DNA from: Escherichia coli
GTDB taxonomy: Bacteria > Pseudomonadota > Gammaproteobacteria > Enterobacterales > Enterobacteriaceae
NCBI RefSeq assembly: GCF_022846255.1
Contig: NZ_AP025682.1
DNA length: 64,000 bases
Reading direction: 5' to 3' (one strand)
This document shows positions 33,898 to 38,062 of this stretch, piece after piece (within the stretch, counting starts at the first letter, position 1; the number at the start of each line of letters is the position of its first letter). The notes beneath the pieces were generated by a model that saw only the letters and a program-made list of their open reading frames with translations, did no database searches and was not told the origin of the DNA. A program made the position numbers and the translations under genes.

Positions 33898-34542
33898 ATG
33901 GCTCGCACAAAACTGAAATTCCGGCTGCATCGGGCAGTGATTGTCCTGTTCTGTCTTGCCTTGTTAGTGGCGCTGATGCAGGGGGCGTCATGGTTTAGTC
34001 AAAACCACCAGCGACAGCGTAATCCACAGCTGGAAGAACTGGCCCGCACCCTGGCGCGTCAGGTGACGCTGAACGTTGCACCGCTGATGCGTACCGACTC
34101 ACCGGATGAAAAACGCATTCAGGCGATCCTCGATCAGTTAACGGATGAAAGCCGTATCCTCGACGCGGGCGTGTATGACGAACAAGGCGATCTTATCGCC
34201 CGTTCTGGCGAAAGCGTCGAAGTGCGCGACCGGTTGGCGCTCGACGGCAAAAAAGCGGGCGGCTATTTTAACCAGCAGATTGTCGAACCTATTGCCGGGA
34301 AAAACGGACCGCTCGGCTATCTGCGCCTGACGCTCGACACCCATACGCTCGCCACCGAAGCCCAACAGGTGGATAACACCACTAACATTTTACGCCTGAT
34401 GTTGCTGCTCTCACTGGCAATCGGCGTAGTGCTGACCCGCACGCTGCTACAGGGTAAACGCACCCGCTGGCAGCAATCGCCCTTCCTGTTAACCGCCAGC
34501 AAACCGGTGCCGGAAGAGGAAGAAAGCGAGAAAAAAGAGTGA
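33898..34542 (+). CDS. ytjB: Membrane protein YtjB (Smp)
   Basis: 214 aa starting MARTKLKFRLHRAVIVLFCLALLVA. Confidence 0.85.
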   Translation: MARTKLKFRLHRAVIVLFCLALLVALMQGASWFSQNHQRQRNPQLEELARTLARQVTLNVAPLMRTDSPDEKRIQAILDQLTDESRILDAGVYDEQGDLIARSGESVEVRDRLALDGKKAGGYFNQQIVEPIAGKNGPLGYLRLTLDTHTLATEAQQVDNTTNILRLMLLLSLAIGVVLTRTLLQGKRTRWQQSPFLLTASKPVPEEEESEKKE

Positions 34543-34569
34543 CCCATTACTACAAGAAAGGAAATCGTT

Positions 34570-35586
34570 ATGTCCACATTACGCCTGCTCATCTCTGACT
34601 CTTACGACCCGTGGTTTAACCTGGCGGTGGAGGAGTGTATTTTTCGCCAGATGCCCGCCACGCAGCGCGTTCTGTTTCTCTGGCGCAATGCCGACACGGT
34701 AGTGATTGGTCGCGCACAGAACCCGTGGAAAGAGTGTAATACCCGGCGGATGGAAGAAGATAACGTCCGCCTGGCGCGGCGCAGCAGCGGTGGCGGCGCG
34801 GTGTTCCACGATCTCGGTAATACCTGCTTTACCTTTATGGCTGGCAAGCCGGAGTACGATAAAACCATCTCCACGTCGATTGTGCTCAATGCTCTGAACG
34901 CGCTCGGCGTCAGCGCCGAAGCGTCCGGACGTAACGATCTGGTGGTGAAAACCGCCGAAGGCGACCGCAAAGTCTCAGGCTCAGCCTATCGCGAAACCAA
35001 AGATCGCGGCTTCCACCACGGCACCTTGCTACTCAATGCTGACCTTAGCCGTCTGGCAAACTATCTCAACCCGGATAAAAAGAAACTGGCGGCGAAAGGC
35101 ATTACCTCGGTACGTTCCCGCGTGACCAACCTCACCGAATTGCTGCCGGGGATCACCCATGAGCAGGTTTGCGAGGCGATTCGAGAGGCCTTTTTCGCCC
35201 ATTATGGCGAGCGCGTGGAAGCGGAAATCATCTCCCCGGACAAAACGCCAGACCTGCCGAACTTCGCCGAAACCTTTGCCCGTCAGAGTAGCTGGGAATG
35301 GAACTTCGGTCAGGCTCCGGCGTTTTCGCATCTGCTGGATGAACGCTTTACCTGGGGCGGCGTAGAACTGCATTTCGACGTCGAAAAAGGCCATATCACC
35401 CGCGCCCAGGTGTTTACCGACAGCCTCAACCCCGCGCCGCTGGAAGCCCTCGCCGGGCGACTGCAAGGCTGCCTGTACCGCGCAGATATGCTGCAACAGG
35501 AGTGCGAAGCGCTGCTGGTTGACTTCCCGGAACAGGAAAAAGAGCTACGGGAGTTGTCAGCGTGGATGGCAGGGGCGGTAAGGTAA
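34570..35586 (+). CDS. lplA: Lipoate-protein ligase A
   Basis: 338 aa starting [22 protein letters not shown]. Confidence 0.95.
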
Positions 35587-35617
35587 CTCGCTGATTAAAA
35601 TATCCAGGGAAGGAAAT

Positions 35618-35881
35618 ATGATCGATCTGGAAAACCAGGAACGGGAGATTATCAATTTAATGTTCAGCCAGGGTATATCCTGGCTAACCGCCGTGCGTAT
35701 CAGGCATAAACTATCACTTGCTGAAGTAAGTAAAATGTTAGGTATCTCCATTAATTCTCTAAAACAGATCGAAAAGACGGAACGGCTTAGTTCAAACATC
35801 AAAAGCAAAATGGCAGGAATTTATGGTTGTCCACCAGAGTTGCTGATATGCCCTTCCTGGATGACTGCTGAACATAAATGA
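35618..35881 (+). CDS. Small XRE-family helix-turn-helix protein (87 aa), unknown function
   Basis: ORF with RBS GGAAGGA 4 nt upstream of the ATG; HTH-like segment KLSLAEVSKMLGISINSLKQIE; AT-rich; 31 bp downstream of lplA on the same strand. Confidence 0.55.
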   Translation: MIDLENQEREIINLMFSQGISWLTAVRIRHKLSLAEVSKMLGISINSLKQIEKTERLSSNIKSKMAGIYGCPPELLICPSWMTAEHK

Positions 35882-35979
35882 ATAGATTCGTGAATAGATA
35901 CTTGAATGGATTTTATTTTCTATCCATATGAAAAATAATAGTAAATCTATAAATCAGTTGCTATTGATGAATAAATACT

Positions 35980-36008
35980 AAAAAGCCGGAGCAGTCTCCC
36001 ACTCCGGC
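35980..36008 (-). terminator. Intrinsic terminator downstream of deoD
   Basis: Minus strand reads gccggagtgggagactgctccggc followed by ttttt, about 35 bp after the deoD stop. Confidence 0.8.
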
Positions 36009-36041
36009 TTCACACGACAATCGCCTTTCAGCAAAACACAA

Positions 36042-36761
36042 TTACTCTTTATCGCCCAGCAGAACGGATTCCAGCGCGATTTTGATCATGTCGTTGAAGG
36101 TGGTCTGACGCTCAGCGGCAGTGGTCTGCTCGTGAGTGCGGATGTGGTCAGACACGGTGCAGATGGTCAGGGCTTTCGCGCCAAATTCTGCAGCGACGCC
36201 GTAGATACCAGCCGCTTCCATTTCCACGCCGAGGATGCCGTATTTTTCCATCACGTCGAACATTTCGCCGTCCGGAGAGTAGAACAGGTCAGCGGAGAAC
36301 AGGTTACCAACGCGAGCATCAACGCCCAGTGCTTTTGCCGCGTCTACCGCGTTACGCACCATGTCGAAGTCAGCGATAGCGGCAAAGTCATGGTCTTTAA
36401 AACGGATGCGGTTAACTTTGGAATCGGTGCAGGCACCCATACCGATAACGACGTCGCGCAGTTTTACGTGCGGCAGAACAGCGCCACAGGAACCAACGCG
36501 GATAATTTTCTTCACGCCGAAATCAGTGATCAGTTCTTTGGTGTAGATGGAGCAGGACGGGATACCCATACCGTGGCCCATTACGGAAATTTTGCGGCCT
36601 TTGTAAGTACCAGTGAAGCCCAGCATACCGCGAACGTTGTTCACTTCACGGGCATCTTCAAGGAAAGTTTCAGCAATATACTTCGCACGCAGCGGGTCGC
36701 CTGGCATCAAAACTACGTCAGCAAAATCGCCCATTTCTGCATTAATGTGTGGAGTAGCCAT
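36042..36761 (-). CDS. deoD: Purine nucleoside phosphorylase DeoD
   Basis: 239 aa starting [26 protein letters not shown]. Confidence 0.97.
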
Positions 36762-36817
36762 CGTTTTATCCTTTTTGTGACATATTAAAGGCGGAGTCAC
36801 TGCTCCGCCCAAATCCA

Positions 36818-38062
<1,245 letters not shown>

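Follow-up and report, generated by a model that had tools for sequence, protein, structure and literature searches.

How Escherichia coli genomes differ at the junction of lplA and deoD

In E. coli K-12, the site between deoD and lplA is occupied by yjjJ (hipH), a monocistronic gene encoding a HipA-family kinase with an N-terminal helix-turn-helix (HTH) region (PMC8262856, PMC9948734, PMC11452175). In the 64-kb stretch of E. coli DNA analyzed here (the window), the same site holds a single small frame for an HTH protein, and the question arises whether this frame is what remained of yjjJ or an unrelated gene that took its place and, in the latter case, where it came from and whether it still matters. 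A first-pass annotation of the window had placed a 443-aa yjjJ between deoD and lplA in K-12 and concluded that the kinase module was absent here. Both statements held: yjjJ was found at this position in K-12-type strains, tblastn revealed no YjjJ-like sequence anywhere in the 64-kb window, and the 87-aa product of the small frame had no match to HipA_C (PF07804; NCBIfam NF007297), for which K-12 YjjJ scored 675 bits (NF007297) and 1e-20 (HipA_C). The strain is without the HipH kinase, whatever the fate of the small frame.

Organization of the gap between lplA and deoD

The gap is 455 bp long (35587-36041) and is flanked on the left by lplA, encoding lipoate-protein ligase (34570-35586, plus strand), and on the right by deoD, encoding purine nucleoside phosphorylase (36042-36761, minus strand). 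The deoD gene codes for 239 aa, and the 258-aa ORF listed at this position is the same gene read with an upstream extension. As the first-pass annotation had described, the gap is AT-rich and contains one XRE-type HTH ORF of 87 aa, co-oriented with lplA (35618-35881, plus strand); it was the one gene-like ORF of at least 40 aa found there. The GC content is 0.38 in the gap and 0.41 in the ORF, in comparison to 0.58 in lplA and 0.51 in the whole window.

The ORF is separated from lplA by a spacer of 31 bp (35587-35617, plus strand), in which the purine-rich, Shine-Dalgarno-like AGGGAAGGA ends 3 nt upstream of the ATG, very close for a run of this type. We found no terminator-like site between lplA and the ORF. 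The sole terminator-like hairpin of the gap is GC-rich, is located at 35982-36011, acts as the deoD terminator on the minus strand, and is the only one able to end a plus-strand transcript of lplA and the ORF. Because the spacer is only 31 bp long, no terminator intervenes, and the next hairpin also serves deoD, the layout suggests that the ORF is most likely co-transcribed with lplA by read-through, and that this transcript would end at the shared hairpin. A search of Rfam over 35300-36300, with E up to 1, returned no match.

To the right of the ORF, the gap retains elements of the upstream region of yjjJ. In the K-12-type strain C600 (L001), lplA (plus strand) is followed by yjjJ and deoD (both on the minus strand), and yjjJ converges on lplA without a spacer. 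The nucleotide alignment proposed in the first-pass annotation placed the breakpoints at the lplA stop codon, where homology between the two arrangements ends, and at the yjjJ ATG. Between them, the window has about 285 bp of haplotype-specific AT-rich DNA (35587-35872), and K-12 has, in the same place, yjjJ from codon 2 to the stop (1332 bp). The relic yjjJ start codon is located at 35873-35875 on the minus strand; on the plus strand it reads CAT and forms His86 of the ORF. It is followed by three tandem ATCTATTCA repeats with a 12-bp period (35879-87, 35891-99 and 35903-11, minus strand), the orphaned proximal part of the yjjJ upstream array, and the TGA stop of the ORF consists of the first three bases of the first of them. 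The next 56 bp (35912-35967), at the position of the yjjJ core promoter, could not be aligned with the spacer of K-12 or ST131, and no promoter match was found in them on the minus strand. A distal fourth repeat, ATTTATTCA (35968-35976, minus strand), adjoins the terminator. The window thus keeps all four copies, and of the 11 sites in the 64 kb that match with no more than one mismatch, four fall within these 98 bp. In comparison to the K-12 locus at the same deoD-lplA site, the window retains the yjjJ ATG, the four repeats and the deoD terminator and lacks the whole 1332-bp coding sequence, while its ORF, encoded on the opposite strand, shows no sequence relation to yjjJ and includes no kinase domain. 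The relic ATG also opens a frame of 26 codons antisense to the HTH ORF (35875-35795, minus strand), which is probably meaningless, since no promoter match lies upstream of it.

Family and fold of the 87-aa protein

In RefSeq, the ORF already carries the label 'helix-turn-helix domain-containing protein'. Pfam gave matches to HTH_3 (PF01381; 2.5e-5, residues 25-76) and Sigma70_r4 (1.7e-5), and further profile matches were obtained with HTH_25 and HTH_19 of Pfam, HTH_VI of PADLOC (1e-5) and phrog_7241 (2e-9); in NCBIfam there was no match above the curated cut-off. The AlphaFold model (pLDDT 88) has a five-helix XRE fold, with helices at residues 22-29, 34-41, 45-54, 59-69 and 73-76, and an additional N-terminal helix. 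Both the HTH_3 profile and the modeled five-helix bundle place the protein among the XRE / Cro-C1 HTH proteins. The best fold matches in the PDB were CylR2, C.BclI, SinR and P22 c2. CylR2, the C.BclI/C.AhdI controller proteins and the N-terminal domain of SinR are, like the ORF product, small stand-alone five-helix HTH regulators, and they were its top Foldseek matches (TM 0.54-0.62, prob 1.0, E ~0.02). The ORF product differs from them by the extra N-terminal helix, and membership in their families was not found at the sequence level, the phmmer search of PDB sequences having returned nothing below E 0.5. The fold search, carried out with a predicted structure, yields generic XRE regulators only.

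Word-indexed and exhaustive protein searches identified close relatives in Escherichia only (E. coli, E. marmotae, cryptic-clade strains and Shigella), and outside this genus the family was represented by a single contig (~15 billion proteins). The next tier of relatives, with 27-42% identity to the ORF, consists of the C-terminal parts of 102-129-aa proteins. Annotated relatives from phages and plasmids are 30-37% identical over ORF residues 3-77, and in the collection-wide tblastn the similarity to the antitoxin-like proteins was modest (E about 1e-6), with values of 2e-6 to 3e-3 in phages and plasmids. A toxin-type gene (ParE/RelE/HigB) is present upstream in five of the seven remote-homolog loci. 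In Pasteurella phage Pmp14, Enterobacteria phage PPyecE_EH1910, Leclercia plasmid pZ96-1_2 and Ewingella plasmid pB61a it lies directly upstream and has a product of 86-93 aa; these four genes were called by their record annotation (RelE-like toxin, RelE/ParE toxin or plasmid-stabilization protein), and the one confirmed by Pfam was that of Pmp14 (ParE_toxin, 7e-10). At the fifth locus (L023), a HigB_toxin gene is located two genes upstream. Since the remaining two loci (Xenorhabdus L024 and Logan L021) have no recognizable adjacent toxin, the label 'antitoxin family' rests on five loci.

The modules of Pmp14, PPyecE_EH1910, pZ96-1_2 and pB61a have a toxin-first, HigBA-like gene order, and their HTH proteins share with the ORF product the motifs (A/T)A(W/V)R, SQ/KQIEK and Y-x-C as well as the XRE fold. 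In contrast to these modules, the ORF has no toxin gene: its upstream neighbor is the lplA stop, 31 bp away, and a search of the 64-kb window for ParE/RelE-like sequences gave no match. It also lacks an N-terminal part, as in the alignment it begins ~45-60 residues into the relatives, whose 45-60 additional N-terminal residues show a weak Phd/YefM-like match. Furthermore, its 10-residue C-terminal tail is read from the junction and the relic DNA. In-frame sequence upstream of the ORF is closed by a stop at 35579-81, within the last codons of lplA; an extension of the antitoxin homology over 18 nt upstream of the ATG, reported by tblastn, contained no identities, was closed by this stop and was not counted. 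The comparisons demonstrate a relation, on the level of homology, to the HTH-type antitoxins of type II (ParE/RelE/HigB) systems, in a protein with neither a cognate toxin in its operon nor the full-length N-terminus. The ORF is best described as the putative surviving DNA-binding half of a toxin-antitoxin module, of which the toxin and the N-terminal domain would be gone. Its product is most likely a small dimeric XRE-type protein, predicted to bind DNA, that is, a solo antitoxin-like repressor without a toxin to control.

Constraint on the ORF and its dispensability

Among seven Escherichia alleles, the pairwise dN/dS of the ORF was 0.12-0.70, in comparison to 0.01-0.06 for lplA and deoD in the same genomes. 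Synonymous changes accounted for 19 of 42, versus 21% expected without constraint (P = 4e-4). Composition-matched shuffles stay open in 0.25-0.4% of cases, two orthologs that are 56% identical in DNA both retain 87 codons, and the conserved positions map to the HTH core. These observations argue that the ORF is more than a chance frame, and where it is intact it appears to be under moderate purifying selection.

A nonsense allele, Q50* (CAG to TAG at codon 50), was detected with an exact 41-nt probe in 1690 of the 5426 complete genomes of E. coli (31%, or ~42% of those with the HTH arrangement), for example in O111:H8, and another allele has a frameshift. With the nonsense allele in almost one third of E. 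coli genomes, the ORF is dispensable. In the window, codon 50 (35765-35767) is an intact CAG. The frame has evidently been kept for a long time, and it is intact here and dispensable in a very large E. coli lineage.

Alternatively, the ORF could by now be a functionless relic, unexpressed or expressed without consequence, which has not yet been destroyed in this strain. We regard this as possible, although rather unlikely. It would agree with the Q50* allele in 1690 of ~4036 genomes and the frameshifts in others, with a dN/dS that is 3-10 times that of the neighboring genes, with the lack of a partner toxin and with the decay of the adjoining relic repeats (two versus three copies, and point changes). 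However, dN/dS is well below 1 and the excess of synonymous changes is significant at the level given above; the frame and its exact length are kept in an ortholog of 43% identity, although only ~0.3% of shuffles stay open, and the conserved positions are those of the HTH core.

Two haplotypes across E. coli

The survey of the junction, also proposed in the first-pass annotation, was run on the 5426 complete E. coli genomes and revealed two haplotypes. The HTH haplotype, called when at least 80% of the window's gap was covered, was found in 4036 genomes and yjjJ in 1348, always on the chromosome and essentially in one copy per genome; the sum of 5384 is consistent with the haplotypes being alternatives. 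The carriers of yjjJ are K-12 derivatives, ST131 and a third group with a gene ~96% identical to K-12 yjjJ, and among the strains with the HTH haplotype are O157:H7, O111:H8 and the B2 strains M1/5 and A0 34/86. K-12 had been taken as the norm in the first-pass annotation; it is in the minority, and the arrangement in the window is a common, ordinary haplotype and not a peculiarity of the strain. In the searchable literature on HipH, we found neither a description of the hipH/HTH polymorphism nor a mention that most strains lack hipH.

The deoD genes of ST131 (yjjJ) and of the window (HTH) differ at 2 of 720 positions, and the lplA of K-12 is closest to the lplA of HTH strains. The flanking haplotypes are not sorted by the cassette between them, which indicates that the cassette has been shuffled by recombination. 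A scan of genome contigs with peptide patterns from the ORF alignment, which were narrow, returned two Escherichia loci only.

We also noticed that lplA is unusually polymorphic in E. coli, with 33-86 differences per 1017 nt and dS of 0.17-0.43 between strains. The window is identical to strain 1105 over 35485-36698 and differs from it at 60 sites in 34026-35484 (the 3' end of ytjB and lplA), a recombination mosaic, and no complete genome matched 34570-36818 above 98.5%.

Ancestral state of the site

In Salmonella enterica, Citrobacter freundii, Kosakonia cowanii, Cedecea davisae and one further genus, yjjJ is located directly downstream of deoD and converges on lplA. An Erwinia tasmaniensis-like contig (L028) has the order deoD-yjjJ-ytjB and no lplA at the site, so the linkage of yjjJ and deoD is conserved even there. 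The ATCTATTCA array, with one distal and three tandem copies, was present in all eight yjjJ loci examined for it, from Erwinia to E. coli (L001, L011, L013, L015, L016, L026, L027 and L028). At these loci the distal copy adjoins the deoD terminator, the three copies with the 12-bp period end 2-6 nt before the ATG, and the 55-65 bp that separate the distal copy from the proximal ones lack conservation across genera.

An array and a start codon without the gene, as seen in the window, are a relic, which suggests that the HTH haplotype comes from a yjjJ-bearing ancestor in which codon 2 through the stop was replaced. On the level of sequence, the alignments demonstrate the replacement, its breakpoints and the orphaned state of the putative yjjJ control region, and as part of the best explanation as a whole, yjjJ is probably the ancestral occupant of the site. 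The only non-Escherichia ortholog of the ORF that we found (P0081, 43% identical and also 87 aa) is encoded on a singleton Logan contig (L003), with lplA, 89% identical in protein, on one side and a convergent deoD on the other. The same junction is recognizable there, and this points to a single old event.

The relic repeats vary: three of the eight sampled HTH haplotypes have lost one 12-bp repeat unit (three versus two copies in the comparison of the window with L004, L005 and L007), and the third copy is variable, which is consistent with slippage and decay. In HTH haplotypes, conservation of the relic repeats does not exceed that of the non-coding DNA around them, and we found no evidence that they are still in use or that the ORF product acts on them. 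Between the two E. coli haplotypes, the homology of the distal-proximal spacer was indistinguishable from that of shuffles (39/500). A simple replacement in place does not explain such an unalignable spacer. Its divergence, similar to that between genera, would be in keeping with an HTH haplotype that arose in a diverged lineage and was later transferred or coexisted for long with the other.

The opposite order of events, with the HTH ORF as the original occupant and yjjJ inserted later in the K-12 and ST131 lineages, would suit the majority status of the HTH haplotype in E. coli and its presence in E. marmotae, other Escherichia clades and one other genus. However, yjjJ follows deoD, with the same array, in genera from Erwinia to Salmonella, the HTH haplotype holds a yjjJ ATG and array without a gene to serve, and the ORF family is otherwise limited to Escherichia and a single contig. 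We consider this order very improbable and rejected it on the basis of synteny and the orphaned repeats.

The first-pass annotation had offered two options for the ORF, an independent small regulator that replaced yjjJ or a remnant of yjjJ. The first is favored by the orphaned yjjJ ATG and repeats and by the presence of yjjJ at this site across Enterobacterales; the second did not survive comparison with YjjJ. The suggested BLASTP search of the ORF product against the 443-aa YjjJ gave no similarity (best E 0.2 over 6 residues), the ~285 bp of the window did not align with yjjJ DNA, and the N-terminus of YjjJ had no XRE-family match in Pfam, only a weak one to MarR_2. None of the marks of YjjJ/HipH, namely the kinase domain, homology to YjjJ and co-orientation with deoD in the direction from the repeat array to lplA, was found in the ORF. 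That the ORF is a yjjJ stump, reduced to the HTH domain by an internal deletion of ~1.07 kb, is hardly credible and was rejected, for although YjjJ does have an N-terminal HTH region (PMC8262856) and such a stump exists in strain WB61, the ORF runs on the strand opposite to yjjJ, resembles it neither in protein nor in DNA, finds no XRE-family counterpart in the YjjJ N-terminus and matches ParE/RelE-linked HTH proteins instead. The real stump in E. coli WB61 (L012, 2449-2640) is a 192-nt pseudogene of the yjjJ N-terminal part, overlaps the end of lplA and is labeled 'transcriptional regulator, missing C-terminus'.

Proposed course of events and implications

Taken as a whole, the locus is likely to represent an old polymorphism of two haplotypes, in one of which ~285 bp of foreign DNA, encoding an HTH ORF without a toxin, took the place of the yjjJ coding sequence. 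The ancestral order in Enterobacterales would have been deoD and then yjjJ/hipH, converging on lplA, with the array before yjjJ. In the ancestor of the HTH haplotype, yjjJ from codon 2 to the stop would have been replaced by the AT-rich foreign DNA, which presumably encoded, on the opposite strand, the DNA-binding half of the HTH protein of a ParE/RelE-type module. The surviving frame would cross the junction, run through the antisense of the yjjJ ATG and end in the first relic repeat, and the yjjJ promoter and repeat region would have been left orphaned and slowly decaying.

The position and deep conservation of the ATCTATTCA array at loci with yjjJ make it a candidate for the control of hipH. 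That these repeats serve as operators for HipH itself is made less likely by an earlier ChIP-exo study of tagged YjjJ in K-12, in which no DNA binding was detected (PMC8464067). As the repeats are located within the 5' leader, a role at the RNA level is also possible.

Work on K-12 (MG1655) and a single UPEC isolate has described HipH/YjjJ as a kinase; one study presents it as a DNase that is controlled by c-di-GMP and linked to persistence (PMC9948734, PMC11452175). Since ~75% of the complete E. coli genomes, among them O157:H7, O111 and some B2 strains, are without hipH, conclusions on HipH from K-12 are not transferable to them. The main value of our analysis is this caution for work on HipH, together with the pointer to a conserved array upstream of hipH; the 87-aa gene contributes modestly, as a further orphan HTH of antitoxin-like type.

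A more far-reaching combination of these elements, which we regard as speculative and improbable, would make hipH/HTH a balanced polymorphism that is long-lived and possibly trans-species, with the 87-aa protein as a working solo repressor of antitoxin type. Such a repressor might either silence or cross-neutralize the ParE-HTH modules of incoming phages and plasmids (anti-addiction) or act at the orphaned ATCTATTCA array, having been recruited there, and the array would then be the hipH control element.

Two further variants were seen at this site. In the genus whose YjjJ is 69% identical to that of K-12, an extra ORF of 163 aa, with no Pfam match, is located between deoD and yjjJ (L013, 3332-3823; L014, 201-692). 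In E. coli CEA106S (H48), an IS1A element is inserted in the gap between lplA and deoD and splits the HTH region.
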